From Patescibacteria group bacterium (GTDB lineage Bacteria > Patescibacteriota > Patescibacteriia > XYB2-FULL-38-15): DNA of 64,000 nt. Positions 14,975-43,521 of the stretch are shown piece after piece. The stretch covers positions 191,061-255,060 of the forward strand of contig JBGSRW010000008.1 of assembly GCA_041737355.1 (NCBI GenBank), in the 5' to 3' direction. Made by a program: the position numbers and the translations under genes. The notes beneath the pieces were generated by a model. The model did no database searches, was not told the origin of the DNA, and was given only the letters and a program-made list of their open reading frames with translations. Numbering within the stretch: position 1 is the first letter of the stretch; the number at the start of each line of letters is the position of its first letter.

Positions 14975-16567
14975 TTAAATTAACTCCGTACCGGTCATCT
15001 CTCCCGGTTTCGGTACGCCTATAATTTTTAAAATCGTCGGAGCCACGTCGGCTAAAATTCCGACCGGGGAAACCAAACTCAAATCTCTCCCCGAGGTGCC
15101 TCCGGCCTGCCCTTCAAACCCCCGTCCGGCAATAACCAAAGGAACGGGATTTGTACTGTGCTCTTTGTCAATTTCACCCGTCTGCAAATTGGCTACTTCT
15201 TCGGCGTTACCATGATCGGCGGTCATCATAAGAACTCCCCCGAGAGGCAAAATTATATTTGCTATTTCTCCGACGCAAAAATCGACCGCTTCCGCCGCCT
15301 TGACCGTCGCTTCGATATTCCCGGTATGTCCGACCATATCCGCGTTGGCAAAATTAACGACAATAAAATCGTATTTTTGCGAGCTTATCGCTTTTACCAA
15401 TGAATTTTTGACTTCCGTCGCCGACATCTCGGGTTTCTGGTCGTAAGAAGCGACGCGCGGTGAGGGAATAATAATACGGTCTTCCCCGGGAAATTCCTCT
15501 TCCCTCATACCGTTGAAAAAGAATGTAACATGAGCATATTTTTCCGTTTCGGCGATATGCAGCTGTTTTAATCCCGCCTCGCTCAAAACTTTAGCCAAAC
15601 AAGTCCTGACTTCGTCCGGAGGAAAAACAACCTTGACCGGCAGGCCCTTTTCATATTCCGTCATTGTCGCAAAAAAAAGATTGTGGAATTTTTTTACTTC
15701 CGGAAATTTATCAAAATTATCGCTGACAAAAGCTTTTGTCATTTCCCTGGCGCGGTCGGCGCGATAGTTGAAAAAAACGACCGCATCGTTATCTTCTACG
15801 GTAGCGACCGGTTTTTTACGTTCAGAAATTACGACCGGAACAAATTCTTCGTCATAAACTTTTTTTTCGTAAGAATCCCTGACCGCTTTTTTAGGATCGG
15901 AAAAATAATTATCGCTTTTCCCCAAGACAATAGCCTGATATGCCTTTTCGACTCTGTCCCAACGGTTGTCCCTGTCCATGGCGTAAAAGCGTCCCGAAAG
16001 TGTCGCTATTTTTCCTACCCCGCATTCCTTTATTTTTTCCTCCAATTTTGAAATAAAATCTATGCCGCTGTTAAAAATCGTATCACGTCCGTCTAGAAAC
16101 GCATGGATAAAAACTTTTTTTATTTTTTGATCGGCGGCAAATTTTAAAAGCGCATAAAGATGTTCTATTGTTGTATGGACCTTTCCGCTGCTCACAAGCC
16201 CCATGAGATGCAAATTTGATTTGTTGTATTTCACATGTCTGGCCGCGTCAAGCAAAACCGGGTTATCAAAAAAAGAACCATCACCAATGGATTTGTTTAT
16301 TTTTGGAAGAGTTTGATAAAATATTCTGCCGGTCCCGAGATTAAGGTGGCCGACTTCCGAAGTTCCCATTTCTCCCCAGGAAAGACCTACTTCGCCGCCC
16401 GAAGCCCGGAGGGTCATTGTCGGATAATTGGCAAAAATTCTATCGATATTCGGCGTCTTGGCGAGCATGATGGCATTCCCCGGCCCCGGAGGGGCAACAC
16501 CCCATCCATCCAATATAGCCAACACCACTGGTTTCTGACTCATAGATAAATTTATATCAAAAATCAA
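14975..16567 (-). CDS. gpmI: 2,3-bisphosphoglycerate-independent phosphoglycerate mutase (copy 1)
   Basis: ILDGWGVAPPGPGNAI, TSEVGHLNLG (catalytic Ser), DGRDT. Likely true start at MSQKP (about 16540). Confidence 0.85.
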   Translation of the reverse strand: MIFDINLSMSQKPVVLAILDGWGVAPPGPGNAIMLAKTPNIDRIFANYPTMTLRASGGEVGLSWGEMGTSEVGHLNLGTGRIFYQTLPKINKSIGDGSFFDNPVLLDAARHVKYNKSNLHLMGLVSSGKVHTTIEHLYALLKFAADQKIKKVFIHAFLDGRDTIFNSGIDFISKLEEKIKECGVGKIATLSGRFYAMDRDNRWDRVEKAYQAIVLGKSDNYFSDPKKAVRDSYEKKVYDEEFVPVVISERKKPVATVEDNDAVVFFNYRADRAREMTKAFVSDNFDKFPEVKKFHNLFFATMTEYEKGLPVKVVFPPDEVRTCLAKVLSEAGLKQLHIAETEKYAHVTFFFNGMREEEFPGEDRIIIPSPRVASYDQKPEMSATEVKNSLVKAISSQKYDFIVVNFANADMVGHTGNIEATVKAAEAVDFCVGEIANIILPLGGVLMMTADHGNAEEVANLQTGEIDKEHSTNPVPLVIAGRGFEGQAGGTSGRDLSLVSPVGILADVAPTILKIIGVPKPGEMTGTELI

Positions 16568-16588
16568 AAAATTTTTTGATTTTTATTT

Positions 16589-18151
16589 TTATTCAAAAAG
16601 ACTTTTTCTCGTCATTTCTCTTGGCTGAACGATATCCATTATATCCAAAATAGTCGGGGCTACGTCGGCCAAAACTCCGTGGCGCAGCTTTCTTTTCTTT
16701 TTATTTTTAAAATTTGGCCCGGCTACAATAAGCGGCACGTGGTTAATTGAATGTTCAGTATTTATTTCTCCGGTCTTCGTATTGAGCATTTCTTCTACAT
16801 TGCCGTGGTCGGCCGTGATTATAGCCGTTCCATCCTTGCGAAAAACGCCCCTAATAATTTTCCCAACGCAAGCGTCAACCGCCCGAACCGCCTTGATGCC
16901 GGCGGCAAGGTTACCGGTATGCCCAATCATGTCCGGATTGCAAAAATTAACAGTGACAAAATCATAACGGCCGCTGTCAATACATCTTCTTACTTCGTAG
17001 GTAACGTTTTCCGCATTCATTTCCGGCTTTTCTTCGTAATGCGCCATGGGCGGAGACGGAACCCTTATTCTTTCTTCGCCATAGATAGGATCAGCGTTAC
17101 CTCCGTTAAAGAAATAAGTTATGTGGGCGTACTTTTCCGCTTCGGCAATATAAATTTGTCTCTTGTCGCGAAGCACCGCCGGCAGGGCGCTTAAAATATT
17201 GCGGGCTGGAAAAGCCGTCATAATGTGGGGCAAATCCGGACCAAAATCGGTCATGGCGGCAAAGACAATATTTTTGGCTATTTTTTTTCTTATGAACGAA
17301 CGGCTGTTTTTTTCCGTAAAATCTTTCTGGACAAAAGTTTTCGTAATTTCCCTGGCCCGGTCGGATCTCAAATTGAAAAAAATTATCACATCGTTATCCC
17401 CGATAGTCGCAATCGGCTTATGGTCGTTGGTGATAACTGTCGGAACAATAAATTCATCCGTTTCTCCGCGGTTATAGGCGGAGGCAATCGCGGCCTCGGC
17501 TGACTCGGCAATTACCCCCTGTCCCAAAACCATGGCATTGTATGCCGCCTCAATCCTTTCCCACTTCTTGATACGGTCCATGGCGTAAAAACGCCCCATT
17601 ATTGTCGCGATTTTTTCCGTACCGTGAAAATGGGCCTTTAGTTTCGGTAAAAGTTTGATAGCCGCGAATCTTGAAGAATCACGGCCGTCGGTGAAAAGAT
17701 GCAAAAATACCTTATCCGCCCCTTGCTGATTTATGAGATCGAGAACGGAATAAAGGTGGCTTGGAAAAGCGTGAGCCGACTCGCCGTTCGAAAGCAACCC
17801 CATAAGATGCACTTTTGATTTATTTTTTTGCGCGTGCTTAAGGGCTTCGATAAAAGCCGTATTTTTGAAAAAAGTACCATCTTTGATGCTTTCATTTATA
17901 TAAACCGAATCCTGCTTTACTATCCATCCGGCCGACAAATTCATATGCCCGGCTTCCGAGTTGCCTTCCTGATTCCCGGGCAAACCGGCCGCTCTCCCGT
18001 GAGCCGCGAGAAGCGCGCAGGGAAATTCATTCCAGAGTGCGGTCATCGTCGGAGTTTTCGCAAGAGTTACGGCGTTCCCCGGCCCGGGCGGCGCCACTCC
18101 CCAGCCGTCAAGTATTACAAGTACCGTAGGTTTTTTATGATTTTTGGGCAT
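16589..18151 (-). CDS. gpmI: 2,3-bisphosphoglycerate-independent phosphoglycerate mutase (copy 2, tandem paralog)
   Basis: ILDGWGVAPPGPGNAV, NSEAGHMNLS, DGRDS. About 40-50% identical to copy 1 by eye. Catalytic residues conserved. Confidence 0.85.
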   Translation of the reverse strand: MPKNHKKPTVLVILDGWGVAPPGPGNAVTLAKTPTMTALWNEFPCALLAAHGRAAGLPGNQEGNSEAGHMNLSAGWIVKQDSVYINESIKDGTFFKNTAFIEALKHAQKNKSKVHLMGLLSNGESAHAFPSHLYSVLDLINQQGADKVFLHLFTDGRDSSRFAAIKLLPKLKAHFHGTEKIATIMGRFYAMDRIKKWERIEAAYNAMVLGQGVIAESAEAAIASAYNRGETDEFIVPTVITNDHKPIATIGDNDVIIFFNLRSDRAREITKTFVQKDFTEKNSRSFIRKKIAKNIVFAAMTDFGPDLPHIMTAFPARNILSALPAVLRDKRQIYIAEAEKYAHITYFFNGGNADPIYGEERIRVPSPPMAHYEEKPEMNAENVTYEVRRCIDSGRYDFVTVNFCNPDMIGHTGNLAAGIKAVRAVDACVGKIIRGVFRKDGTAIITADHGNVEEMLNTKTGEINTEHSINHVPLIVAGPNFKNKKKRKLRHGVLADVAPTILDIMDIVQPREMTRKSLFE

Positions 18152-19080: not shown

Positions 19081-20328
19081 TTATTTTATTAACGGTTTAA
19101 TTCCTGGTAATATTTTCCCTTCCAAAAATTCAAGCATGGCTCCCCCGCCCGTGGAAATATGATCGATATATCCGGCCATACCAGTTTTTTCTATCGCCTC
19201 TATTGTCTCTCCGCCGCCAACAACCCCGAAAACCTTGCCTTTTGACCGCGCCGCGACAAGTTGACCGAGGGCGATTGACCCATGGCTGTATTTAGGAATT
19301 TCAAAATATCCCATCGGACCGTTCCAGACGATGGTCTGGGCGCGTCTTATAATTTCCGCGTACTTCCTTACCGTTTCAGGGCCAACATCCAAAAGAGCGT
19401 AAGGTTTTTTGCAAAGCTCGGCCTTCTTGCCCGGGACTTTGACTACCCAGGCTTTTTTGCCTTTGAAATCTCCGGCGACAAAATCAACCGGCAAAATTAT
19501 TTTTTTGTTGGCCAGCAATTTTTTCGCAGTTTTAATTTCTTTCTCTTCAAAGACCGAACCGCCGATGCCGTATCCGGCCGCTTTGAAAAAATTATTAACC
19601 AGCGCGCCGCCAAGAAGGATATTGTTCACTTTTTTAAGAAGATTTTCTATGACTCCGATTTTTGTGGAAATTTTCGCTCCGCCGATCATCGCCATAAATG
19701 GCTTTTTTGGCTTAGTAAGCAGCCCGCTTAAAACATTGATTTCTTTTTCCATGAGAAATCCGGCGTAGCTCGGCAAGAATTTCGTCACACCGACGATTGA
19801 GGCGTGTGCCCGATGCGCCGCGGCGAAAGCGTCATTAACGTAAATATCGGCTAAGCCCGCAAGCCCCTTGGCGAATTTCAGATCGTTTTTTTCTTCACCC
19901 GGATCAAAACGTAAATTTTCAAGCAAGATCAATTCTCCATTTGCCATGGCGTCAATTTTTTCCAAAGCTTTTTTTCCTTCCCAGTTGGCCGGAGCAATCC
20001 CTTGCATTCTTAAAATCTTGGCAAGCGCCGCGCCGACCGGTCTCAAACTCAAATCCGCTTTTATTTTTCCGCCCGGGTCGCCCAAGTGGCTTATCAAAAT
20101 AATTTTTGCTCCTGCCGCGAGAAGATAGTTTATAGTCGGAACGGCCGCGACAATTCTCGTATCGTCTGCGACAGTAATTTTTCCGCCGGCTTTTCCAAGT
20201 GGCACATTAAAATCAACCCGGAGCAAAACCTTTTTGCCCTTCAGCTCCTTAATCTCCTTTATTGTTTTGAGTTTCATAAACTTAAAATTAATACGTATAA
20301 AAATATTTTTGGTAACATTATTTCTCAC
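19081..20328 (-). CDS. pgk: Phosphoglycerate kinase
   Basis: KKVLLRVDFNVPL N-terminal signature, GGGA hinge motifs. True start probably the internal MKLKTIKE at about 20277. Confidence 0.9.
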   Translation of the reverse strand: MRNNVTKNIFIRINFKFMKLKTIKEIKELKGKKVLLRVDFNVPLGKAGGKITVADDTRIVAAVPTINYLLAAGAKIILISHLGDPGGKIKADLSLRPVGAALAKILRMQGIAPANWEGKKALEKIDAMANGELILLENLRFDPGEEKNDLKFAKGLAGLADIYVNDAFAAAHRAHASIVGVTKFLPSYAGFLMEKEINVLSGLLTKPKKPFMAMIGGAKISTKIGVIENLLKKVNNILLGGALVNNFFKAAGYGIGGSVFEEKEIKTAKKLLANKKIILPVDFVAGDFKGKKAWVVKVPGKKAELCKKPYALLDVGPETVRKYAEIIRRAQTIVWNGPMGYFEIPKYSHGSIALGQLVAARSKGKVFGVVGGGETIEAIEKTGMAGYIDHISTGGGAMLEFLEGKILPGIKPLIK

Positions 20329-20575
20329 CTTCTATTTCTTCGAGTTCCCATGACGGCTTATCAATTTTTTCCACCATGATTTCGGCGTTTTTTGCCAAAC
20401 TATCTTTTGCCAAAAGATGGATGTTAAATTTTAAATTTTCCGGATCGATTTCCGAACCGTGTTCAATAACGCTTCCCAAACCGATTTTAATTTTTGTCAC
20501 TTCCTTGAGGCCGTTCTGCTTGGCATGCTCCAAAACCATTTTTAAAATTCTGTCGGCTTCGTGTAAATCGTGCAT
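20318..20575 (-). CDS. HypA-like hydrogenase maturation protein lacking the zinc-finger
   Basis: 85 aa. N-terminus MHDLHEADRILKMVLEHAK matches the HypA MHE..S nickel-binding N-terminus, but no CxxC...CxxC zinc site is present. Immediately downstream of hydA. Confidence 0.45.
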   Translation of the reverse strand: MHDLHEADRILKMVLEHAKQNGLKEVTKIKIGLGSVIEHGSEIDPENLKFNIHLLAKDSLAKNAEIMVEKIDKPSWELEEIEGEK

Positions 20576-20576
20576 A

Positions 20577-21860
20577 TTAATGTGTCGCGCAGGTCATGCA
20601 AGGATCGTAAGCGCGAACCATCATATTGATTTTCCACTTTCTGTCGCGCTCGTCTTTGACCCTCGCTTCGCTTAAATATTTTTTTAAATCGTTTTCCAAA
20701 TTGTCCAAAAATTGGGCGGTCGGCGTAATGATGTTGCAGGCGCGAATCACCCCGTATTTGTCGATTTTGTAATAATGATAAAGCGTTCCGCGCGGTGCCT
20801 CGGTGGCTGCCAGCCCTTCGCCATTTTTCATTGTATATTTCACGGATAAAATTCTTGATTTTTCCTTAAGATATTCTCCAAGCAGTTTTTTAACTTCCTC
20901 AACGCAGCTAACTAATTCCACCGCCTGGGCGTAAATATTGTGGAAAGTATTATAAGTCAAAACTTTTTCGCCCGCCGATTTTTCAAAAAACGGCAAAAAC
21001 TTTTTTGCTTCGCTGCCGAGATTTTTATGGCTCAAATTAAGCCGGGCAATCGCCCCGAGCATAAAACTTTTTCCCTCGTGGCTGGCGCGTTTTGTCGGGT
21101 CGTCTTCGGATTGTTTTTCTGAAAGTTCTTTATAAAATTCTTCCACTGAAGTTTTCGGCTGAACGCTTGAACCCATTTTCCCGTCGTAAAAAGCGTACTC
21201 GCGCGGCGAAACTAGTCCAGCAAATTCAACCTTGCGTTCGTATTTCGGATAATCAAGGGCGCGGAAAAATTTTGCCACGCTGATTGCCGCCGCCAAAACT
21301 TCATCCGCCTCGTCAATTAACTCCTGCAGCAATTTATCGTCGGGAATTTTCCGGAAACCGCCGATTTCCGTGGCTAGCAAATGCATATCGCGCCCGCCGA
21401 CCACGTCTTTTATTTTATTGCCAAAATCACGGATTAAAATAATCTGTTTGGCGAGATCTGGATATTTTTTAATCAAATCAATATCGCTCTCGTATTTAAA
21501 AAAGTCCGACAAGGACAAAAAGAAAAGATGGGCGGCGTGGCTCTGGATAGGCTCTGCTAAATCTAAAACTTTCCTTAGTCGCTCTGCCTGCGGTGTAATT
21601 TTCACGCCAAAGGCCTGCTCGATCGCCTTGATACTTGTAAGATTATGGGCGACTGAGCAGATTCCGCAGATGCGCGAAGTAACAATCGGCGCTTCGATAA
21701 AATGACGATCGAGAATTATTGACTCGATGAGCCGGGCTCCAATTTTTATTTTAATCTTGGCGCTTGTGATATCGCCCCGGAGCATATCGGCAAAAAAACT
21801 GGCGTGTCCCTCGATTTTCGCAAGATGTGAAATTTTTATTTTCATAATACTATTCCTCAA
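20577..21860 (-). CDS. hydA: [NiFe]-hydrogenase large (alpha) subunit, group 3-like
   Basis: N-terminal RICGICSVAH (RxCGxCxxxH) and C-terminal DPCMTCATH (DPCxxCxxH) Ni-Fe ligand motifs. 427 aa is typical of cytoplasmic group 3 enzymes. Confidence 0.9.
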   Translation of the reverse strand: MRNSIMKIKISHLAKIEGHASFFADMLRGDITSAKIKIKIGARLIESIILDRHFIEAPIVTSRICGICSVAHNLTSIKAIEQAFGVKITPQAERLRKVLDLAEPIQSHAAHLFFLSLSDFFKYESDIDLIKKYPDLAKQIILIRDFGNKIKDVVGGRDMHLLATEIGGFRKIPDDKLLQELIDEADEVLAAAISVAKFFRALDYPKYERKVEFAGLVSPREYAFYDGKMGSSVQPKTSVEEFYKELSEKQSEDDPTKRASHEGKSFMLGAIARLNLSHKNLGSEAKKFLPFFEKSAGEKVLTYNTFHNIYAQAVELVSCVEEVKKLLGEYLKEKSRILSVKYTMKNGEGLAATEAPRGTLYHYYKIDKYGVIRACNIITPTAQFLDNLENDLKKYLSEARVKDERDRKWKINMMVRAYDPCMTCATH

Positions 21861-22608
21861 GTTTCAAAAAATCGTCTTCTGCGCCGTATGTTTCCATCAC
21901 TTCGGCCAGATATTTTTTTCCGACTAATTTTTCCAAATTTTTTATATGCTTCTTAATCTGCGGTCCGGATCCAGGAAGCGGCCCGCGGCAGCCGTAGCAG
22001 AATCTTTTGCTCCTAAGACAAACCGCCTTACATCCGCCAAGCGTAATCGGCCCCAAACATGGTTCACCTTTTTGCAGGAGGCACTCATATCCTAGCGTCT
22101 GGCATTCAAAACAGATTGGGCGGACGGGAATTTTCGGTTTCCGGCCAAAAGCTAAATCAGAAACTATCCGGTAAAATTCGTCCTGGTCAATCGGGCAACC
22201 GGGAACGGCGTAATCAACTTCTACCACCTTCCAGAGCGGCACGACGGCCGGATTTTCAATCCGCTGGTATTTTGGGTAAACATATTTAACTTTTTCTTTT
22301 TTCCCATGTTCGGTATAATTTTTTATTTCCTGAACACCGCCCAAATGGGCACAGGAACCGATCGCTACTAAAATTTTCGATTTCTTCCGCAATTCTTTTA
22401 GATATTTAAAATCTTCATGGGTGAGCGGCGTGCCTTCAACCAACGCCACGTCGTATTTCGGTCTCTCCCGCTTTTCCTCGGCCCAGGCAAAATTTCCCAA
22501 ATCAAAAATCTGAAAAAGATCGAGCATTCTTTTCCCCAAATTCAGGATCTCAACCTGGCATCCCTCGCAGCAAGTCATGCTGGCAATCGCAAGCGTCGGT
22601 TTTTTCAT
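21850..22608 (-). CDS. hydD: [NiFe]-hydrogenase small (delta) subunit
   Basis: Starts MKKPTLAIASMTCCEGCQVE. Cys clusters for proximal/medial FeS clusters. Overlaps hydA by 11 nt. Confidence 0.85.
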   Translation of the reverse strand: MKKPTLAIASMTCCEGCQVEILNLGKRMLDLFQIFDLGNFAWAEEKRERPKYDVALVEGTPLTHEDFKYLKELRKKSKILVAIGSCAHLGGVQEIKNYTEHGKKEKVKYVYPKYQRIENPAVVPLWKVVEVDYAVPGCPIDQDEFYRIVSDLAFGRKPKIPVRPICFECQTLGYECLLQKGEPCLGPITLGGCKAVCLRSKRFCYGCRGPLPGSGPQIKKHIKNLEKLVGKKYLAEVMETYGAEDDFLKLEE

Positions 22609-22611
22609 AAA

Positions 22612-23115
22612 CTATTTTAATAATTCAACTATTTTTTCTCCAAAACTTCGCGCCGCGTCCGGTCCTGAAGCGGTAATAATTTTCCCGTCGGCCTCTACTG
22701 GCGCGCCGGTGTATTCCGCCCCGCCCGCCGCCAGAGTTTCTTCCTCGTCGGGCGTCGAAGTCGCTTTCACCCCCGAGAGAAGGCCGGCTTTGGCCAAAAT
22801 CGCCGGAGCAAGGCAAATTGCCGCGACAATTTTCCCGGCATCAAAAAACTCCCGCGCCAGATCATGAACCCTCTCGTCATCAAGATAAACTTCCGCGCCC
22901 CGTCCGCCAACCAAAACTATCGCCGAAAAATCATCAAGCTCCGCGTCGTCAACCGTCAGATCCGGCATTACTGTTCCGCCGAGCCGCCCTTTTGCCAAAG
23001 TCAATTCCTGGCTCGCGACCTCGACATCAATCCCTTTTTTTATAAAAACATCCCTCGGTTCAAAAAATTCCTCATCACGAAAATCTTTTTGCGCGACAAC
23101 CATTAAAATTTTCAT
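22612..23115 (-). CDS. DJ-1/PfpI family protein
   Basis: 167 aa. AICLAPAILAKAG nucleophile-elbow region typical of DJ-1/PfpI. Confidence 0.75.
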   Translation of the reverse strand: MKILMVVAQKDFRDEEFFEPRDVFIKKGIDVEVASQELTLAKGRLGGTVMPDLTVDDAELDDFSAIVLVGGRGAEVYLDDERVHDLAREFFDAGKIVAAICLAPAILAKAGLLSGVKATSTPDEEETLAAGGAEYTGAPVEADGKIITASGPDAARSFGEKIVELLK

Positions 23116-23121
23116 AAAAAT

Positions 23122-24006
23122 CTATTTTATAAAAATTGAAAACAAAAATCCCAGAACCGAGAAAAAAGCCAAGGGCGGCAGGGCCGGCATGGGCGTTTTT
23201 TGCGGCTGGGTCGTGAAAAGGACATGGAGCACCACCAAACCGACAAGCGATCCGGCAATCGTGAAAACCGCGCTCTCCAAACCGTAGGAAATCGCAGAAA
23301 CCGCCAAAATCAAGGGCAAAATCAAATCCCCTGTTCCCAAAAACATAAACTCGTTGCCCGGCGCGACCTTGGACAAATTAACCGCCCAGCCCCGCCACTT
23401 CATTGGAAAAATCAGAGCCATGATTACTCCCCTCACGACCAGCTCTTTGAACATCATGACCATTTGGGCCGTTTTATAAACCGCGATGTAATCGTAAATG
23501 GAAATCAAAAATAAAATAACAAGAATCGCCGAAATAGGCAGAGACAAGCCAAAGGCGGCCCCAATGCCGGCAACCCCTAAAATAACCGCCAGATTATGGA
23601 ACCAGACGCGAGGCAGGACAAACTGGAGAACGACAAAAATTATTGCCAAGCCAACCGAAAATATTGTCGGCAAAAAAATACTGAAAACCGTCTGGGATCC
23701 TAAAAAAATTATCAAAGCGAAAATTCCCCTGAAAAAAGAACCGCCTTTTATAAATCTCAGGGAAATGATCAGAAGAATCGTGGCAATAACAAAAGAAATC
23801 AAGAATTCCCAAAGAGAGGTGGCTATTTTTATTTCTGCGAATGCCTCATAGCTCATCAAGCGCATGGCGGCCCAAAGCCCGATGATCTGAACCAGGCCGA
23901 AAACAACCAATTCCTGAAATAAAAATTTGCCTTTGAAGACGGGCGAAACGGGCATGATTTTAATCTTAAATTCTGGTTGATTAAACTTAACTTTATTATA
24001 GCACAT
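23122..24006 (-). CDS. Presenilin / signal-peptide-peptidase-like GxGD intramembrane aspartyl protease
   Basis: 294 aa, about 8-9 TM helices. YD motif (ISIYDYIAV), GxGD motif (FLGTGDLILPL) and a C-terminal PAL motif (MPALPPLAFF), in the order characteristic of the A22 family. Confidence 0.55.
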   Translation of the reverse strand: MCYNKVKFNQPEFKIKIMPVSPVFKGKFLFQELVVFGLVQIIGLWAAMRLMSYEAFAEIKIATSLWEFLISFVIATILLIISLRFIKGGSFFRGIFALIIFLGSQTVFSIFLPTIFSVGLAIIFVVLQFVLPRVWFHNLAVILGVAGIGAAFGLSLPISAILVILFLISIYDYIAVYKTAQMVMMFKELVVRGVIMALIFPMKWRGWAVNLSKVAPGNEFMFLGTGDLILPLILAVSAISYGLESAVFTIAGSLVGLVVLHVLFTTQPQKTPMPALPPLAFFSVLGFLFSIFIK

Positions 24007-24042
24007 TTCGGGAACCTCTTAAAACTGGTATAATTTTATCGT

Positions 24043-24669
24043 ATGCTATTAGAAAACAGGGCTGAAGCAGGCCAAAAATTGGCTGAATTGCTGAAACAAT
24101 TCAAAGACGCCAAAGAAACAATAATCATCGCCTTGCCGCGCGGCGGGGTTGTAGTCGGCTTCGAAGTGGCAAAAGAACTAAATCTCCCGCTGGATATTGT
24201 CGTGCCGCGAAAAATCGGCGCGCCGGGCAATCCCGAATTTGCCATCGGCGCCATAACAGAGTCGGGCGAAATGATTTTGAATGAAGAAGTTTTTGGAATT
24301 TCGGAAAGTTATTTGAAAAGCGAGACGGAAAAGGAAAGGGCCGAGGCGGAACGGAGATTAAGACTCTACCGCGGCAGCCGTCTGCCGCTTGATTTAGAAA
24401 ACAAAACCGTTATCCTGATTGACGACGGCCTGGCCACCGGGCTTACCATGCGGGCGGCTATTTCGAGCGTCAAAAAAATGAAGGCGAAAAAAATTATTGT
24501 CGCCGTGCCAATTGCTCCGCCCGAGACAGTGGAATTGATAAAAAAAGAAACTGATGAAATATTTTATCTTGAGGCTCCCCTGCTCTTCGGCGCCGTCGGG
24601 GCGTTTTACAAAGAATTCGGCCAGACGACTGATGAAGAAGTGATTGATTTGTTGAAAAAATCTGAATAG
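24043..24669 (+). CDS. Type I phosphoribosyltransferase-domain protein
   Basis: 208 aa. PRPP-binding loop VILIDDGLATGLTM. Two PRTase-fold halves. Confidence 0.7.
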   Translation: MLLENRAEAGQKLAELLKQFKDAKETIIIALPRGGVVVGFEVAKELNLPLDIVVPRKIGAPGNPEFAIGAITESGEMILNEEVFGISESYLKSETEKERAEAERRLRLYRGSRLPLDLENKTVILIDDGLATGLTMRAAISSVKKMKAKKIIVAVPIAPPETVELIKKETDEIFYLEAPLLFGAVGAFYKEFGQTTDEEVIDLLKKSE

Positions 24670-24721
24670 TTTGGAAAGTAAAAACTCTCTGTCATCCTTC
24701 GCTTCGCTCCTCCAGAATGAC

Positions 24722-24752
24722 AAAAAAACTCCGCCGCTCCGCGGAGTTTTAA
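24722..24752. terminator. Bidirectional terminator hairpin
   Basis: aaaaaaactccgc-cgc-tccgcggagtttt. A-run on one side and T-run on the other, so it can serve both the + strand PRTase gene and the - strand paralog gene. Confidence 0.5.
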
Positions 24753-24878
24753 AGTTTATCCCCCAGACTTGTCCTTGCAGGTGTGGAGGTAAAAAAATCC
24801 CGCATGAAACTTGCGTAACACGCGGGAAAGCAGCAGTTTTGTCCAAGAGACCTAGAAGGGCCTAGGTTTCAAGAACCA

Positions 24879-25487
24879 CTACTTGTGGACGGCCAAGAAC
24901 CGGTAATGATCGCTCCATTCGATGCCGACCCAGAGTACGAAAAGGTGCCGCTCGTTGAGGCGCCAGTCGAGACAGGCGAAGAAGCGGCCGCCGTGCCGAT
25001 CCATGAAGTGCGAGCCGAGAGCCACGATCCCGAACTCCTTCTGGAGCTCGGGACGAGCGGCGCCGAGGGCCAAGAGCTCTTCGATCTTGGCCGGACGGAG
25101 GCCGCGACGGGCGAGTTCCGCGAGAATTTCGTCGGTCGAGGCCATCTTGTTCATGTGAACGAGGACGAGCTCGCGGAGGACCTTGCCCTCGCCCGAGATC
25201 GGGAAGAACCCGGGGGTGATGTCATCGTTCACGAAGTCGTAGCGGCCGGAGGCGATCATTGCCTCGAGGCTCTGACCATAGTCGACCTCGACCTTGAAGG
25301 TCGCGTCGGAAGGGAGGGCCGCCTTCACCATGGCGATTTCCGCCTGGCCCTTGACGAGAGGCAGCAACCGCGCGAGCAGGTCTCCTTCGGAGAGCCGCTT
25401 CACGTCGGCGTTGGTCCAGCCGTTCCGGCCGAAAGCCATTGCCAGCTCATGGGCCTGGCCAGTTGTCATCTTGAACTCGTCACTCAT
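24879..25487 (-). CDS. Hypothetical protein, paralog family member 1 (GC-rich cassette B)
   Basis: 202 aa. Shares the block GRYDFVNDDIT ... RGLRPAKIEELLALGA.RPE.QKEFGIVALGS ... RFLAV with the protein at 42762-43395. Confidence 0.5.
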   Translation of the reverse strand: MSDEFKMTTGQAHELAMAFGRNGWTNADVKRLSEGDLLARLLPLVKGQAEIAMVKAALPSDATFKVEVDYGQSLEAMIASGRYDFVNDDITPGFFPISGEGKVLRELVLVHMNKMASTDEILAELARRGLRPAKIEELLALGAARPELQKEFGIVALGSHFMDRHGGRFFACLDWRLNERHLFVLWVGIEWSDHYRFLAVHK

Positions 25488-25547
25488 GACTTGTTCTCTT
25501 TCTTTCTCGCAACCGATTCAATCCGAACCCCGTTGCTGTCTTTGGCC

Positions 25548-25564
25548 GAGAGAAATTCCCAGCC
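25548..25564 (-). promoter_or_regulatory. Conserved 17-nt leader motif (minus-strand GGCTGGGAATTTCTCTC), copy 1
   Basis: Identical 17-mer also present at 43522-43538, upstream of the paralogous gene. Lies in the 5' leader of 24879-25487. A candidate minus-strand TTGACA sits at 25597-25602. Confidence 0.4.
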
Positions 25565-25659
25565 AACGAATTATTAAATCATTCTTTGGATATTTTGTCA
25601 ACACCTTTTTAAATAAAAAAGAGCTAGCTTCAAAAGCCAGCTCAAGGAAAAGAAAAGAA

Positions 25660-26418
25660 TCAGTTGCGCTTGCCGTTCTCGGCTATCTTCCGGCAGGCGG
25701 TGAGAGTCGCTTCGGTCCAGTGTTCAAGCCGGCGCGCTTCATTGAGCGTGATGACTTCGACTACCCTGCCCCAGTGAAAAGCAACCAAGTCGCCAGCTCT
25801 GATACGCGGAATAATCTGCGGATCGCGCCGGACAAGACGCTTTTTTTCTTTTTCTTCCAGCTCTGCCAGGAATCTGTTACCCTCGTGCTTCAGAGATCTT
25901 GCCGAAACGGTAAGCTCCGGCCCCTTGCCAACCGAGACGACTTTTCCCCAGCCGATGCGACAAAGCTCCCAGCCGACCGATTCGCGATCCACCTGACCAG
26001 AAATTCCGCCGATTGCGAGAACATGAAAACTGTGGTGCGGCCGGTGCTGATAGTGGACGTGGTCCGTGGTTTCTTTCGCTGCCGCCTCGGTCATCCGGCC
26101 CTCGCCGACAAAACCGAATATCAGCTCCCTCAGATCTTCCGGCCGGACACGGCCGAGGAGTTCGTTGCCAATCCAGTAGGCGTCAACCACGCGGTCGTCA
26201 AGCCAGTCTTCGATTCCGTTTGCCGCGGCAATGAGCTTCAGGTAGGCCGTGGCCGCGGTAAACTGCCCCAAGAGCCGCCTTGCATGATTGTCGTCGACCT
26301 TGCTCTTGGTCGTGAGATACTGGTATAGCTTGCCCTTCTCACTGCCCCGCGGCCCGCAAAGGCCGAGTTCGTTCGGGTAAAGCGCGTAACGCGCCGCCCG
26401 CTCGTATTTCTTTCCCAT
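25660..26418 (-). CDS. Hypothetical His-rich protein translationally coupled to hypC (GC-rich)
   Basis: 252 aa. ATG is 1 nt after the hypC stop, and the hypC 3' end (gggggagaggaggaaaaaa) provides its RBS. Contains a His cluster HVHYQHRPHHSFH. GC-rich, unlike hypC. Confidence 0.5.
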   Translation of the reverse strand: MGKKYERAARYALYPNELGLCGPRGSEKGKLYQYLTTKSKVDDNHARRLLGQFTAATAYLKLIAAANGIEDWLDDRVVDAYWIGNELLGRVRPEDLRELIFGFVGEGRMTEAAAKETTDHVHYQHRPHHSFHVLAIGGISGQVDRESVGWELCRIGWGKVVSVGKGPELTVSARSLKHEGNRFLAELEEKEKKRLVRRDPQIIPRIRAGDLVAFHWGRVVEVITLNEARRLEHWTEATLTACRKIAENGKRN

Positions 26419-26652
26419 CTATTTTTTCCTCCTCTCCCCCTGATTTTGGAATTCGTCCAGGACGGCAAGGCAATTTTTCGCCTCCTCTTCGGAAATTTTT
26501 TTCATTCCAATGCTGCCTTGCACCAATATCCAATCACCTTTTGCCGCTTCCGGCAAGAGTGAAGTGTCAATATCAAAAACTTTGCCGCCATTTTTAACGG
26601 CGGCTTTATTTTTCTTGATTTTTTCAATTTTACAAGGAATACCGAAGCACAT
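26419..26652 (-). CDS. hypC: Hydrogenase maturation chaperone HypC/HupF
   Basis: 77 aa starting MCFGIPCKIEKI (the essential N-terminal Cys2 motif MC[LF][GA]IP). Confidence 0.8.
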   Translation of the reverse strand: MCFGIPCKIEKIKKNKAAVKNGGKVFDIDTSLLPEAAKGDWILVQGSIGMKKISEEEAKNCLAVLDEFQNQGERRKK

Positions 26653-26678
26653 GATGTAAAATTTCTAATTCCTGATAT

Positions 26679-27593
26679 CTAATGGCTTGTTGTTATATCT
26701 ATTTCCATCTTTTTAAATTTTGAAAATAAACCCAGAACCGCGGCTACTCCCAAAAACATCAGCAAGCTTCCGCTAAAAATCTGCCAGTCGAAAATTCCTT
26801 TTTGCGCCATTTCTAATAAACTTGTAATCGGCGCGCCGAGCGACAAGATGCAGACAGCCGACGAAACCGGAATATATTTCAGGCCTGCATACCAGGTCAA
26901 AACATAACCTAAAAGAAAAATTGCCGTTATCCAAATCCAGCTTAATTCCGCTGCACCCATGCTTCCGAGCAGCTTCATCTGCCCGGTCGCCGCCCAAAAA
27001 ATCAAAATAAATAAAAATCCGAAAAACATTCTCCCCCAGGCAACAATTTTCGGTGAAATATTTTCCAGGGCTTTTTTTGAAATGATTTGTTCGGCGGACC
27101 AAAATAGTGTGGCAGCCAAGACCAGTAATTCACCGTAGCCGAATTGAAATCCATCAAAAATTTTTAAAAGCAGGGCGCTGCCGATCAAAATAAAAAACGC
27201 CCCGGTCATCAGCTTTTTGCTTACTTTCTCCTTCAAAAATATCGCCTCCAAAACTATCACGTAAATAAAAAGTGTTTTGTGGATAAAAGATGTACTCGCC
27301 CCGCTTGTTAGGGATAAACCTTTGAAAAAAAACAGAAAAGGAATGCTTCCGCCGAACAGACCAATCAAGATTAAAGTCAACCATTCTTTAACCTTAAATT
27401 TCGCCAACAATTTCCACTCCCTGAATAAAAAAATCAAGCAAAGCAAAACAACTGCCACGAGCAAATTTTTCAAACCGGCAAAAATATACGGACTAATAAC
27501 CTTAACCCCGAATTGATTAATAAAAATAGAAACACCGGAAATAACTGCTGTTCCCAGAACCAATAAATATCCTTTTTTGGTATTCATAATCAC
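26679..27593 (-). CDS. EamA/DMT-family transporter
   Basis: 304 aa, 10 TM helices in two 5-TM halves. Confidence 0.7.
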   Translation of the reverse strand: MIMNTKKGYLLVLGTAVISGVSIFINQFGVKVISPYIFAGLKNLLVAVVLLCLIFLFREWKLLAKFKVKEWLTLILIGLFGGSIPFLFFFKGLSLTSGASTSFIHKTLFIYVIVLEAIFLKEKVSKKLMTGAFFILIGSALLLKIFDGFQFGYGELLVLAATLFWSAEQIISKKALENISPKIVAWGRMFFGFLFILIFWAATGQMKLLGSMGAAELSWIWITAIFLLGYVLTWYAGLKYIPVSSAVCILSLGAPITSLLEMAQKGIFDWQIFSGSLLMFLGVAAVLGLFSKFKKMEIDITTSH

Positions 27594-27606
27594 TTGTTAT
27601 TTTTTT

Positions 27607-28425
27607 TTAAATCGCTCCGCGGATATCTTTTATTTGGTCCCAGGAAAAAACCGGACCGTCCTGGCAGACAAAGAAACTTCCGACCGCGCAATGGTTGCAA
27701 ACCCCGACCCCGCAGTGCATCCGCCGTTCGAGTGACATAAAAATATCTTCGTCTTTGAACCCTGCTTTATTTAATTTTTCCAGAACAAATTTATACATAA
27801 CCGGCGGGCCGCAGAGAAACGCGACTGGGTTTTCGGCAAGCGGCGCCTTGTCAAATAAAACCGTAACCAAACCCTGAATTATTGGACAAGATAATTTAAA
27901 TTTATCCGTCGGCTTATCAAGACACAAATGAAAATCAACATCATTTTTCATCCATGAATCGTATTCTTTCCGGAAAAGCAGGTCGTCTTCGGTTTTTGCC
28001 CCGTAAAAAATCTGGACTTTTTTATATTGTTTCCTGTTTTTTACGATTTCAAAAATCGCCGTCCGGACCGTTTCAAGGCCAAGTCCGCCAACAACGATTA
28101 AGAGATTCCTCTTCTTCGCCAGTTCCGCGGGAAACGGCCGGCCGTACGGCCCGCGGACGCCGACTCTGTCCCCCGCCTTGAGGGAATGCATTGCCGCGGT
28201 TACCGTTCCGACATTTCTCGCGCAAACCTGAAATTTATTTTTTTCTGACGCGTCGGAGCAAAGGCAAAAGGGCGCCTCGCCAAATCCCGGCAAAGATATT
28301 TCCACGAACTGACCCGACTGGTATTTGAAATTTTTTGGCGCTTCAAGGGTAAACAATTTTGAATTTGAACCCTCGTCCTCGATTTTCAAAATCCTTACCG
28401 TTTGCGGCGCGTATTGATTTTTCAT
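27607..28425 (-). CDS. hydG: Hydrogenase gamma subunit (FAD/NAD(P)H-binding, [2Fe-2S]; PyrK-like)
   Basis: 272 aa. Ferredoxin-reductase-like FAD/NAD domains. C-terminal CGVGVCNHCAVG [2Fe-2S] motif. Confidence 0.8.
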   Translation of the reverse strand: MKNQYAPQTVRILKIEDEGSNSKLFTLEAPKNFKYQSGQFVEISLPGFGEAPFCLCSDASEKNKFQVCARNVGTVTAAMHSLKAGDRVGVRGPYGRPFPAELAKKRNLLIVVGGLGLETVRTAIFEIVKNRKQYKKVQIFYGAKTEDDLLFRKEYDSWMKNDVDFHLCLDKPTDKFKLSCPIIQGLVTVLFDKAPLAENPVAFLCGPPVMYKFVLEKLNKAGFKDEDIFMSLERRMHCGVGVCNHCAVGSFFVCQDGPVFSWDQIKDIRGAI

Positions 28426-29387
28426 AATTTTGCCAGAACTTTAAAAATATTTATTCCCACCGGACAAACCTTGGCGCAGCGGCCGCAGCCGACGCAGCCC
28501 ATAATTTGCAATTGGTCGGGAATTCGGACGAATTTATGGTAATACCAGAAATGGATCCGGTCGGCGGTAGTTTTTAAAAACTTTTGCCCGCCCCCCACTT
28601 CGGAAAAATCATTGTAAAAACAGGCTCCCCAGCTCCGCTTTCTGACTCCGCCATCGTCTGTCAGATTTGGCTGATCTTTAACATCAAAACAAAAACAGGT
28701 CGGACAAACCATGGTACATTTTCCGCACTCAATACAACGCGCCCCGAGATCGTCTTCCCAAATTTCTTTTTTATAAATCTTTTTCAGGGCGTCGCGGTAT
28801 TTTATCATTTGCGGATCCTTTCCTTCTTCTCTTATCGGCCCGGAAAATTGGATATGCTCGTAATCCTTGTAACCGAATTCATCAAGAATCTTTTGCCCAT
28901 CCTCCGAACCGGTATAAACAAAATAATTTTTCCCTTGGACTTCAAGGAAAATATCAAACTGCAGATGTTCTAAAATATCTTCCTCGTATTTAATATGAAA
29001 AAGATTATGCTCGGCCTCGGCAGGAATCAAACTCTGCCCGACAATCAAAGTATTTTTCATCCGCTCCTGATACCAGAGATCTTTTTCGAAAATATGGTTG
29101 AACAAAACTATTGCTTTGAGATCAATCGGATTTATCCCAAAAATTACCTGCTTCCTCGCTTTCTTCACTTCGATCATCCTGTCTTTTTTGTATTCAAAAA
29201 TAACTTCTTCCGGCGGCAGCAAAAACCGTTTGAAAGAATGAAGCGGCGGTTCTTTAACGAGCTTCACTTTTGAGGCGTCTTCAACTTTGGCGTAAGCCAC
29301 TTCGTCTTTTTGTTTTTCCGGTGCGAAAACATCATATCTCCGCTTCATCAAAAAACTAATAAATTTTTGCAGTTGTCCGTGGGTCAT
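28422..29387 (-). CDS. hydB: Hydrogenase beta subunit (4Fe-4S ferredoxin-type)
   Basis: 321 aa. CIECGKCTMVCPTCFCFD and CVGCGRCAKVCPVG iron-sulfur motifs. Overlaps hydG by 4 nt. Confidence 0.8.
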   Translation of the reverse strand: MTHGQLQKFISFLMKRRYDVFAPEKQKDEVAYAKVEDASKVKLVKEPPLHSFKRFLLPPEEVIFEYKKDRMIEVKKARKQVIFGINPIDLKAIVLFNHIFEKDLWYQERMKNTLIVGQSLIPAEAEHNLFHIKYEEDILEHLQFDIFLEVQGKNYFVYTGSEDGQKILDEFGYKDYEHIQFSGPIREEGKDPQMIKYRDALKKIYKKEIWEDDLGARCIECGKCTMVCPTCFCFDVKDQPNLTDDGGVRKRSWGACFYNDFSEVGGGQKFLKTTADRIHFWYYHKFVRIPDQLQIMGCVGCGRCAKVCPVGINIFKVLAKL

Positions 29388-29459
29388 ATTAAGAGATTAT
29401 AACATAAAAAATAAAACAAAAACAGGCAGCCTTCCGCCGTCTGTTTTTATAGTTTATTC

Positions 29460-30473
29460 TTATTTTATTTTTTTGCCGACCATCTCCGTGAACTCAACCA
29501 GTCTCGTACTGTATCCCCACTCGTTATCGTACCAGGCGATTACTTTTATCAAATTTCCCCCGACTGCCATGGTGAGCTCTGCGTCAACTACCGAGGAGAG
29601 AGGCGATTTTCTGTAATCGACCGAAACGAGCGGTTCGTCGCTTACGCCCAAAATACCTTTCAATTCTTTTCCCGCCGCGGCGCGCAAAGTATTGTTAACC
29701 TGGTCAACCGTCGCGTCTTTTCCGATAACCAAAGAAAAATCTAGAAGTGAAACTGCCGGTGTCGGAACGCGGATTGATAAACCGTTCAATTTTCCCTTCA
29801 GGTCGGGAATAACTTTTTCCACGGCTTTGGTCGCCCCGGTTGTCGTCGGAATCATGGAGAGCGCGGCGGCGCGGGCCCGGCGCAAATCCTTATGCGGAAG
29901 ATCGAGTAGGCGCTGGTCGTTCGTATAGCTATGGCAGGTTGTCATCGTACCTTTCAGTATTTTAAATTTATCGTTCAGGACTTTGGCGATCGGGGCCATG
30001 GCGTTTGTCGTGCAGGAAGCCATGGAAATAACGAAATCCTTTCTCGGATCGTATTTTTCTTCGTTGCAGCCAATAACATAAGTCGGGATGTCTTCGCCCT
30101 TGCACGGCGCGGAAATAATAACTTTTTTGGCGCCGGCTTTGATGTGGGCCGAAGCGCCCTCAAAATCCGTGAAAACGCCGGTTGATTCTACTACTATATC
30201 AACTCCCAGTTTTTTCCAGGGAAGAACCGACGGATCTTTTTCCGCGAAAATTTTTATTTTTTTACCGTCAACTTCTATAAAATCCTTGCCGGCGGAAACT
30301 TTTCCCGAGTGAACCCCGTAAACCGAATCGTATTTGTACAAATGAGCCAGAGTCGCCGGATCGGTCAGATCGTTTACCGCTACGATTTCCAGCGCCGGAT
30401 AATCTTTGGCGATGGCAAAAAATTGGCGGCCGATCCGCCCGAAACCGTTAACCGCGACCTTGATTTTTGGCAT
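29460..30473 (-). CDS. gap: Glyceraldehyde-3-phosphate dehydrogenase, type I
   Basis: KVAVNGFGRIGRQF NAD-binding motif, SCTTNA catalytic Cys region. Start taken as MPKIKVAV (30473) with ggggaggaaat RBS. The track ORF extends to 30545. Confidence 0.9.
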   Translation of the reverse strand: MPKIKVAVNGFGRIGRQFFAIAKDYPALEIVAVNDLTDPATLAHLYKYDSVYGVHSGKVSAGKDFIEVDGKKIKIFAEKDPSVLPWKKLGVDIVVESTGVFTDFEGASAHIKAGAKKVIISAPCKGEDIPTYVIGCNEEKYDPRKDFVISMASCTTNAMAPIAKVLNDKFKILKGTMTTCHSYTNDQRLLDLPHKDLRRARAAALSMIPTTTGATKAVEKVIPDLKGKLNGLSIRVPTPAVSLLDFSLVIGKDATVDQVNNTLRAAAGKELKGILGVSDEPLVSVDYRKSPLSSVVDAELTMAVGGNLIKVIAWYDNEWGYSTRLVEFTEMVGKKIK

Positions 30474-35364: not shown

Positions 35365-35570
35365 CCCGGCAAAAATCAAATAGTCCGCCCGAATTTCCCC
35401 TAAAATTCGGGCTTTATTTATTATTAAGACTTGACAAACCCGCTTTTCTGTAATACCCTGAAAATATCATAAATGGTGGCCATCCCGCCAAAGAGGCGGG
35501 AAGGAAGGTGGCCCTAGACATCTGCCGATAGACGGCGGATTAAAAATAGGGAAGGTTGGAGGAGAGAGAA

Positions 35571-35831
35571 ATGTTTTTGGAGAGCCTCGGCATGGATCCG
35601 GAAACCGGTACGATCGGCGCTTCTTCGCTCGGTGCGATCCACGTCAAGAACCGGATTGACCCGGAAAAACCGCTCCGTCGCTGCCAGGAACCCGGTTGCG
35701 GTACGATTCTCCGCAGCGGCAACCCGGACAACTACTGCTCGCTGCACACCTGCTCCGAAAGGCGCGGCAAGAAGTACACCGACTCCGTCGCCCTCCGGCG
35801 CCGGAAGCGGATGCATCTCGTCCGCGTCTGA
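35571..35831 (+). CDS. Small Cys-containing (zinc-ribbon-like) hypothetical protein
   Basis: ATG at 35571 with RBS ggaggagagagaa. CQEPGCGTILRSGNPDNYCSLHTC Cys pattern. Basic C-terminus. Confidence 0.4.
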   Translation: MFLESLGMDPETGTIGASSLGAIHVKNRIDPEKPLRRCQEPGCGTILRSGNPDNYCSLHTCSERRGKKYTDSVALRRRKRMHLVRV

Positions 35832-36017: not shown

Positions 36018-36083
36018 GCGGATAGAAAGGACTTGCCAAAACAACCCCGCGAATCGCGGGCAAAAGGCAAGCGGGAGGAAGAC

Positions 36084-43395: not shown

Positions 43396-43521
43396 ATTTT
43401 CTTTTCTCCTTGCATCTTTCGGTATTCGCCAGGGCATCCCCACATTATTGTTGGGACAGCCTTTTGATAAACCGACGAGACGCTTGCTCCGCACTCCTGG
43501 CAAAGAGTGAAGAACCTAGCT

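Follow-up and report, generated by a model that had tools for sequence, protein, structure and literature searches.

Gene content and class of the hydrogenase

The stretch of DNA considered here is a 64-kb part of contig JBGSRW010000008.1 from a Patescibacteria group bacterium (the window; content of guanine plus cytosine, GC, 0.46). It carries a [NiFe]-hydrogenase locus in which the subunit genes hydB-hydG and hydD-hydA stand as two separate pairs on the minus strand. All coordinates refer to the window, and the gene calls were made from the list of its open reading frames (ORFs) and from Pfam scans. The hydrogenase genes, with the glycolytic genes on either side of them, are the following.

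29460-30473, minus: gap (GAPDH); Pfam Gp_dh_N and Gp_dh_C; 337 aa in the public record
28422-29387, minus: hydB, beta subunit (Fe-S, AsrA-like); Pfam Fer4_22, E 2.8e-31
27607-28425, minus: hydG, gamma subunit (FAD/NAD(P)-binding, 2Fe-2S); Pfam FAD_binding_6, NAD_binding_1 and DHODB_Fe-S_bind
21850-22608, minus: hydD, small (delta) subunit; Pfam Oxidored_q6; 82-86% identity in close relatives
20577-21845 (ORF to 21860), minus: hydA, large (alpha) catalytic subunit, group 3b; Pfam NiFeSe_Hases
20318-20575, minus: mini-HypA, 85 aa; Pfam HypA, positions 1-68 of 112; NCBIfam scores under the cutoffs
19081-20277, minus: pgk; Pfam PGK; 40 nt past hypA
about 15000-18151, minus, after pgk and SIMPL: two tandem gpmI (independent phosphoglycerate mutase, iPGM) paralogues, about 45% identical

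Along the minus strand the genes run rpsB, tsf, PSP1, gap, hydB, hydG, EamA, hypC, DUF6390 and orf202. Past a plus-strand phosphoribosyltransferase (PRTase) gene it continues with the genes for an SPP-type and a DJ-1 family protein, hydD, hydA, hypA, pgk, SIMPL and the two gpmI genes. The first pair of subunit genes overlaps by 4 nt, and 4,998 bp separate the hydG stop from the hydD start. Six genes, two terminators and one opposite-strand gene occupy this interval, so that the locus is not a single contiguous hydBGDA operon, an arrangement that is typical of such enzymes and not strictly defining. The original prediction had placed the two pairs 5 kb apart on this strand with these same genes between them. 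All of its gene calls were reproduced, and the embedding of the locus between gap upstream and pgk/gpmI downstream was confirmed. The gpmI pair is kept in every examined relative whose locus extends far enough.

Pfam content, together with a structural match for the beta subunit, identifies the four subunits alpha, delta, AsrA-like beta and AsrB-like gamma. HydB matches the beta subunit of P. furiosus sulfhydrogenase I (9nez_B) across its whole length with an E value of 8e-29. The start of hydA is most likely the ATG at 21845, which gives a protein of 422 aa and agrees with the public call and with all homologues. HydA contains the motif RICGICSVAH and the terminal motif DPCMTCATH, both invariant across an alignment of 12 relatives. 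Its top PDB matches are the alpha subunits of the T. kodakarensis cytosolic NiFe-hydrogenase and of P. furiosus sulfhydrogenase 1 (5yxy, 9e1j and 9nez; E 9e-55 to 6e-53). These 3b structures outrank those of Mvh (3c), Frh (3a) and the NAD-reducing enzyme (3d), and the class is assigned from this PDB ranking. All HydA matches that carry an organism name come from Patescibacteria.

All eight hydrogenase and hyp ORFs are intact, being of full length with their catalytic motifs present. HydA ends at the histidine of DPCxxCxxH without a C-terminal extension, so that no maturation endopeptidase should be needed. The mini-HypA consists of the N-terminal nickel-binding domain without the zinc domain (CxxC...CxxC) and is therefore not a full-length HypA; the length of 85 aa is kept in relatives. 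The soluble sulfhydrogenase I (3b) of P. furiosus and T. kodakarensis has the same four homologous subunits and the same L1 and L2 cysteine motifs in its alpha subunit. Unlike that system, the window has its genes in two units 5 kb apart, with maturation and unrelated genes between them and gap and pgk as flanks. The truncated end of HydA, the absence of an endopeptidase gene nearby and the shortened HypA also distinguish it.

Conservation of the predicted two-unit layout

The interval between hydG and hydD holds the following genes, one of them within a cassette.

26679-27587 (ORF to 27593), minus: EamA/DMT-family transporter; Pfam EamA, E 2.9e-34
26419-26652, minus: hypC chaperone; Pfam HupF_HypC, E 1.9e-16; NCBIfam TIGR00074, 59.5 against a cutoff of 48
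25660-26418, minus: DUF6390; start abuts the hypC stop; GC 0.585
24747-25613, minus: orf202 cassette of about 860 bp; promoter-like TTGACA (25601-25596), 17 nt, TTTAAT, then orf202
24879-25487, minus: orf202; GC 0.63, GC at third codon positions (GC3) 0.84
24043-24669, plus: PRTase, type I phosphoribosyltransferase; Pfam Pribosyltran, E 1e-21
23122-23955 (ORF to 24006), minus: homologue of presenilin/SPP-type intramembrane aspartyl proteases, first gene of the predicted second unit; Pfam SPP, E 1.7e-17
22612-23115, minus: DJ-1/PfpI family protein; Pfam DJ-1_PfpI, E 2.9e-41

A scan with one genome per species gave 80 loci (designated L with a number), in which the order of genes was read by tblastn with the window proteins. 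The genes hydB-hydG-hydD-hydA are contiguous in about 55 loci from outside the candidate phyla radiation (CPR), where HydA is 31-35% identical to that of the window; it had been predicted correctly that the four normally form one operon. In the Patescibacteria loci L008, L012, L013 and L015 (HydA 39-46% identity) the order is hydB-hydG-hypC-(EamA)-DUF6390-hydD-hydA-hypA on one strand. L018 shows this order minus a scored hypC, and L016 covers its DUF6390-hydD-hydA-hypA part. The transporter gene EamA stands at the same slot in L002, L008, L015, L018, L082 and L089.

The flanks are conserved as well. Upstream, tsf-PSP1-gap is found in L018 and PSP1-gap in L013; downstream, pgk-SIMPL-gpmI-gpmI is found in L012, L013 and L018. 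The gap gene precedes hydB, directly or with DUF2238 between, in L013, L018, L082, L084, L088, L089 and L091. This synteny in distant CPR indicates that both the maturation genes within the operon and its embedding among lower-glycolysis genes are ancestral to a broad CPR clade. In every locus of the window's clade, and in every DUF6390-bearing CPR locus, for which the upstream region is present, hydBG lies 0.1-5.6 kb upstream of hydD on the same strand. According to passages of Jaffe et al. 2020 (BMC Biol, PMC7304191), the beta and gamma genes of the CPR 'hyd1' type are sometimes not directly upstream of the small subunit gene, and a hypC-like family occurs near the CPR hyd1 clusters.

Seven close relatives (L082, L084 and L088-L092) have HydA proteins 72-83% identical to that of the window. 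PRTase orthologues, with 68-73% protein identity, lie between the halves at the same position and in the same orientation in all seven. A gene for phosphoribosyl pyrophosphate (PRPP) synthase also lies between the halves, beside the PRTase gene, in L084, L088 and L092. Orthologues of the DJ-1 protein precede hydD in L088 (81%) and L092 (67%), and an SPP orthologue of 277 aa, 58% identical, precedes it in L092. The SPP-like protein scores 71.5 against the NCBIfam presenilin family PSH, which is under the cutoff of 125. Its start is probably the ATG at 23955, giving 277 aa; this shorter form is favoured because the -10 element of the best promoter sits within the longer ORF and because the L092 orthologue is of equal length.

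Extra small genes are also found in the operons of relatives. A DUF559 gene lies between hydB and hydG in L088 (L088:2235-2654), and 23S_rRNA_IVP genes precede hydD in L084 (L084:8458-8829) and L092 (L092:7696-8055). Such genes show that these operons accept insertions at several intergenic sites.

The predicted transcription signals of the window are listed below.

29425-29438, minus: terminator-like hairpin with a T-run after gap; an equivalent hairpin follows gap in L082
29396-29404, minus: P1, predicted extended -10 element TGtTATAAT, 8 nt before the hydB ATG, near-leaderless
25621-25643, minus: predicted intrinsic terminator closing the first unit, after DUF6390; 10-bp stem and T6
24725-24750, both strands: predicted bidirectional terminator AAAACTCCGCGGAGCGGCGGAGTTTT, serving orf202 and the PRTase gene
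23995-24022, minus: P2, predicted promoter of the second unit, preceding the SPP gene; TTAAGA, 16 nt, TGcTATAAT

A P1 element of the form TG(T/C)TATAAT stands upstream of hydB in the window and in L082, L084, L088 and L089, that is in five of the six upstream regions examined. A homologue of P2 (AATTATAyC..TTTTyA..AAAGTGsTATAAT) occurs in the window and in all seven relatives, where it is placed ahead of SPP, DJ-1 or hydD. Past DUF6390, the window has its hairpin with a T-run in common with at least four of the five relatives retaining that gene (L082, L088, L090 and L091); L089 has only the shared CTCCGC hairpin. The CTCCGC...GCGGAG hairpin of the bidirectional terminator is also found in L088-L091, and its first arm was seen in L082. 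The same logic of promoters and terminators holds for L082 as for the window. The terminator scan of the window found no minus-strand terminator between hypA and pgk, and pgk is probably co-transcribed with hypA. No riboswitch or other RNA turned up between the genes when 16-33 kb were scanned with Rfam at E <= 0.1.

The DUF6390 module and its counterpart in relatives

DUF6390 is composed of an N-terminal helical domain of 150 aa and a C-terminal domain with the HypC fold; the structural model, built from 24 sequences, has a pLDDT of 90.5. The C-terminal domain shows the OB-fold beta barrel and C-terminal helix that characterize HypC/HybG/HupF, and hhalign relates the family to the HypC families with a probability of 96% and an E value of 4.6e-9. 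The aligned segments are CRIGWG of DUF6390 with MCLAIPG of HypC, and GDLVAFHWG with GDYVIVHVG. Six Cys/His residues are invariant in the 24 sequences (C21, H128, H129, H132, C153 and H215). The Cys and His aligned with C2 and H51 of HypC are among them, and H215, in GDLVAFHWG, is the equivalent of E. coli H51 in the motif GDxVLVHxG. Both C2 and H51 of E. coli HypC have been implicated in holding the iron group (PMC12134894). DUF6390 differs from HypC/HybG/HupF in that its aligned cysteine is internal, and it is also found fused to HTH (helix-turn-helix) or EamA domains; HupF is extended at its C-terminus, not at its N-terminus. For the N-terminal 150-aa helical domain no convincing solved relative was found.

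The HypC of the window retains Cys2 and has Gln at the position equivalent to His51. In an alignment of 20 HypC proteins the histidine is present in 11, namely ten from outside the CPR and that of L004, a CPR locus with hypC-hypD-hypE. It is absent from the other nine, which belong to CPR loci of the hydBG/DUF6390 type and to two DPANN loci.

The pairing of DUF6390 with hypC extends beyond the CPR. Two contigs of the Chloroflexi type show it. L093 carries hox(E)FUYH-type (3d-type) genes, an unassigned ORF and hypA-hypC-DUF6390-SBP_bac_5. L095 carries hypC-DUF6390, SBP_bac_5 and ABC permeases beside an oppositely oriented hydBGDA-hycI-hypA cluster (3b) that is interrupted by a gene for a protein binding cyclic nucleotide monophosphates (cNMP). 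In L087, a Bacillota metagenome-assembled genome (MAG), the order is hycI, an ORF and hypA-hypB-hypF-hypC-hypD-hypE-EamA-DUF6390. A profile search of 1.84 billion representatives returned 1,071 clusters of the family at E <= 1e-10. Among them DUF6390 occurs behind EamA in one fusion (P0340) and in others (P0337, P0365, P0391, P0448 and P0442) behind HTH domains, of which five types were met, PadR, XRE, GntR and ArsR types among them. No publication mentioning 'DUF6390' was found in a literature search. We infer from these associations that DUF6390 serves as a module for binding a ligand or a metal, linked both with HypC and with a transporter; the obvious candidates are nickel and the iron-ligand group, between which the associations do not discriminate.

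With Bacillota queries at E < 1e-4, tblastn found no HypB, HypD or HypF in the window or in the DUF6390-bearing CPR loci; HypE was not queried. Another CPR clade (L003-L005) has a His-containing hypC beside hypD, and L004 adds hypE and the C-terminal half of HypF.

In two of the close relatives, L084 (HydA 80%) and L092 (HydA 72%), the EamA-hypC-DUF6390 slot is occupied by a HypC~HydE fusion and a full-length HydG maturase, not to be confused with the gamma subunit (L084:3393-6124, L092:1-2631). In the 451-aa fusion of L084 the HypC domain scores 52.7 bits with TIGR00074 (cutoff 48) and the HydE part 295 bits with the equivalog TIGR03956 (cutoff 254.6). The fusion of L092 is cut by the end of the locus and is identified from Pfam evidence alone (HypC, Radical_SAM and a faint BATS). 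The HydG equivalog TIGR03955 scores 591-599 bits in the two loci against a cutoff of 312. These proteins are equivalents of the [FeFe] maturases HydE and HydG, found here within a [NiFe] operon and with HydE fused to a HypC domain. The L084 and L092 loci showed neither HydF nor an [FeFe] hydrogenase, and neither HydE nor the HydG maturase was found in the window. Literature searches on HydE, HydG and HypC in CPR and on CPR hydrogenase maturation returned nothing relevant, and no paper on a HydE/HydG replacement.

The three accessory sets, namely EamA-hypC-DUF6390, hypC~hydE with hydG and the hypC-hypD type, never co-occur within the loci of about 20 kb that were examined. Judged on loci of this size rather than on whole genomes, this is suggestive of mutual exclusion. 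DUF6390 is likely to bind either a metal or a metal-ligand species and to act together with EamA and HypC in assembly of the NiFe site. It has also been considered that, in this Patescibacteria lineage, two interchangeable modules in the middle of the operon build the Fe(CN)2CO/Ni site in place of the canonical HypD, HypE and HypF. One of them would be EamA, the His-less HypC and DUF6390; the other would be HypC~HydE and HydG, which would supply CO and CN by the tyrosine-derived route borrowed from [FeFe] maturation. DUF6390 would then be a new maturation factor handling the metal or its ligands and not just an accessory protein. This more far-reaching proposal is speculative and is regarded as rather unlikely.

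Organisation, history and alternative readings

With a probability of roughly three in four, the locus is an intact group 3b [NiFe]-hydrogenase locus of the Patescibacteria 'hyd1' type, with a lineage-specific layout of two co-oriented units, and not a broken operon. This reading draws on gene content, synteny, homology in fold and sequence, and the conservation of promoter and terminator sequences; transcription, the joining of the subunits in one complex and what DUF6390 and EamA do biochemically are inferred. The first unit would start at the extended -10 element just past the gap terminator, encode HydB, HydG, EamA, HypC and DUF6390, and end at the strong terminator. The second would start at the extended -10 element conserved in the clade, encode the SPP and DJ-1 proteins, HydD, HydA and mini-HypA, and probably read into pgk, SIMPL and gpmI. 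Between them would remain the opposite-strand PRTase gene, ancestral to the clade, and the orf202 cassette with a promoter of its own. The enzyme most likely re-oxidises the NAD(P)H derived from GAPDH by production of H2 or by reduction of polysulfide.

The history of the locus may be pictured as follows. An ancestor with contiguous hydBGDA would have given rise to a CPR ancestor that gained hypC, EamA and DUF6390 between hydG and hydD, and hypA after hydA, the whole cluster lying between gap and pgk. In the clade of the window, the PRTase gene would then have arrived with terminators and a new promoter, leaving two units. The SPP and DJ-1 genes may have settled behind the new promoter and been lost in some lineages, and orf202 would have been inserted last, in the lineage of the window.

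The original prediction pointed to another course of events, in which the split may stem from insertions, the GC-rich cassette among them, and the halves may not be co-expressed. Taken further, this reading has a working hydBGDA operon broken recently and a locus that may be decaying. Such a break would agree with the contiguity of the four genes in about 55 non-CPR genomes and with the other inserts in the relatives' operons (DUF559 in L088, 23S_rRNA_IVP in L084 and L092, and high-GC genes between hydD and hydA in L088, L091 and L092). It would agree also with orf202, which is high in GC3 and for which no counterpart turned up at this site among the seven close relatives. In relatives the two terminators flanking the cassette site stand within about 20 nt of each other, and in the window about 860 bp lie exactly between them. 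However, the split by the PRTase gene is common to all seven relatives down to a HydA identity of 72%, the interruption by hypC, EamA and DUF6390 is common down to 39%, the eight ORFs retain their full length and catalytic motifs, and the second half has a conserved promoter ahead of it. The cassette itself, placed between terminators, interrupts no gene or promoter. A recent uncoupling of the halves is thus very unlikely, the split being ancestral in related genomes and hydDA having a dedicated predicted promoter, which is the outcome that the original prediction itself had named as speaking against it. The gap is indeed a product of insertion, as had been supposed; the insertions are mostly ancient and conserved, most of the genes in them are hydrogenase-related, and the orf202 cassette is the only piece of the gap that looks recent. 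Nor does the supposed GC-rich cassette hold together as one insert. It comprises two unrelated genes, DUF6390 and orf202, with a strong terminator between them, the former ancestral and linked to the hydrogenase. An assembly artefact would make the split unreal, the GC-rich segment at 24.75-26.5 kb being a chimeric join from a higher-GC organism, and would account for the sharp steps in GC from 0.39 to 0.60 exactly at gene boundaries (the GC-rich stretch runs from about 24750 to 26500). It is extremely unlikely, since a 47-kb Logan contig and a 268.9-kb NCBI contig both carry the proteins, and the junctions lie at terminators and promoters of host-like composition. DUF6390 (GC3 0.68 in the window) is likewise GC-rich at the same position in the independent samples L082, L088, L090 and L091 (GC3 0.59-0.72), and it abuts hypC without a spacer, the pair abutting or overlapping in other phyla.

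The two halves might also be separate enzymes, with HydBG acting as an AsrAB-like NAD(P)H-dependent sulfur or polysulfide reductase and HydDA as a two-subunit hydrogenase with another partner. Passages of Jaffe et al. (PMC7304191) note the homology of HydB and HydG to AsrA and AsrB, and the halves have separate predicted promoters. Further, the CPR loci L003-L006, L010, L011 and L014 have hydD-hydA-hypA-gap with no hydBG within 9 kb. In L004 (L004:2439-13142, a Moraniibacteriota MAG) NuoF-like and Fe-hydrogenase-large-subunit-like genes stand upstream instead, followed by the His-containing hypC, hypD, VanZ, hypE and the opposite-strand C-terminal half of HypF; the locus continues with hydD, hydA, desulfoferrodoxin, hypA and gap, without hydBG and without DUF6390. 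Against this, hydBG keeps its place upstream of hydD on the same strand throughout the window's clade and the DUF6390-bearing CPR loci with the upstream region present. HydB matches the sulfhydrogenase I beta subunit along its whole length, and the locus offers no electron partner for a HydDA dimer. Two separate enzymes are therefore considered unlikely, and one hydrogenase encoded by two units is preferred.

Several observations nevertheless weigh against the reading of the locus as two intact units with a dedicated maturation module. The promoters and terminators are consensus matches whose support lies in the conservation of position and sequence across relatives. A promoter scan of the whole region gave 32 sites, when 22 +/- 4.7 are expected by chance; the count is modestly above chance, so that the argument from promoters rests on conservation and not on the scan. 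That HydBG and HydDA form one complex is suggested by their linkage, and the CPR loci named above with hydDA beside gap lack hydBG within 9 kb. The GC anomaly of DUF6390, present in most of the clade, may point to allele replacement or to a GC-raising process at this gene. The DUF6390 of L089 (L089:6748-7464) has a GC of 0.43 and a GC3 of 0.41 and is 52% identical to that of the window despite a HydA identity of 83%, and in distant CPR loci the gene is not GC-rich. The DUF6390 cysteine aligned with HypC is residue 153, behind the 150-residue domain, when HypC requires a mature N-terminal cysteine (Cys2), and DUF6390 is therefore not classed as a HypC. The HTH fusions suggest a sensor domain for a ligand or metal instead of a chaperone. 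One Chloroflexi DUF6390 lies at a contig end beside kdp with no hyp gene seen within 8 kb, and is uninformative.

Membership of the CPR 'hyd1' type is assigned from gene content and the Patescibacteria HydA matches. The locus shares with that type, as presented in passages of Jaffe et al. 2020 (PMC7304191), the small, beta and gamma subunit genes, a hypC-like neighbourhood and displaced beta and gamma genes. Those passages make no mention of DUF6390, EamA, the PRTase split, the promoters and terminators, the embedding between gap and pgk or the HydE/HydG module. Hence the class of the hydrogenase and the displacement of beta and gamma are already known in CPR, and what is undescribed is the DUF6390/EamA/HypC module together with its HydE/HydG counterpart in relatives.

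The split itself is of little import, being an inherited arrangement equipped with a predicted promoter, and the maturation module is the part of interest. The DUF6390 family is widespread and uncharacterised; its pairing with hypC, seen in three phyla or more, and its link to transporters make it a candidate for a missing factor in [NiFe] maturation or in nickel handling. The HypC-fused HydE and the HydG maturase at the same slot bear on the long-open question of the source of the CO ligand in [NiFe] sites made anaerobically. The conserved arrangement of gap, hydrogenase and pgk favours the view that glycolytic NAD(P)H is coupled directly to the making of H2 in these reduced-genome symbionts.

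The orf202 cassette is flanked by the 7-bp sequence TTTAAAA at 25613-25607 and 24753-24747, a weak signal in AT-rich DNA. Long repeats, direct or inverted, were looked for over 22.5-27.7 kb, and none was found on either side of the inserted genes. The orf202 protein has no match in Pfam, NCBIfam or PHROGs, and a scan of viral contigs, made with exact peptide patterns of low sensitivity, was empty. The family to which it belongs is modular: the first 63 aa, at the N-terminus, are 62% identical to a high-GC gene product encoded between hydD and hydA in L092, and the C-terminal 140 aa are 45% identical to a paralogue at 42762-43445 on the minus strand of the window. An origin from a high-GC donor outside the CPR was rejected, every homologue with an organism name being from Patescibacteria. 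The minus strand is supported by codon-position GC (GC3 0.84 > GC1 > GC2). The public call of a 230-aa plus-strand ORF at this place was rejected; it has an atypical GC1 of 0.78 with a GC3 of 0.65, and the homologues match the minus-strand protein.

Other GC-rich features occur at and around such loci. The GC island within the DJ-1 gene (22651-23000) was rejected as foreign, since its GC3 is an ordinary 0.49 and the excess lies at first codon positions. Small genes with a GC3 of about 0.85 are found between hydD and hydA in L088 (L088:7916-8671), L091 (L091:9139-9672) and L092 (L092:9189-9764), in genomes with a GC of 0.39-0.46; that of L091 has its public call on the opposite strand, like orf202. 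Besides orf202, the window contains ORFs with a GC3 of 0.66-0.79 at 5917-6384, 34396-35364, 35556-35831, 36033-36584 and 57247-57627 on the plus strand and at 42762-43445 on the minus strand. The plus-strand ORFs 5917-6384, 35556-35831, 36033-36584 and 57247-57627 are without a Pfam family. The ORF at 34396-35364 encodes a GC-rich PRPP synthase, and the one relative's PRPP synthase gene that was checked, in L084, is not GC-rich.

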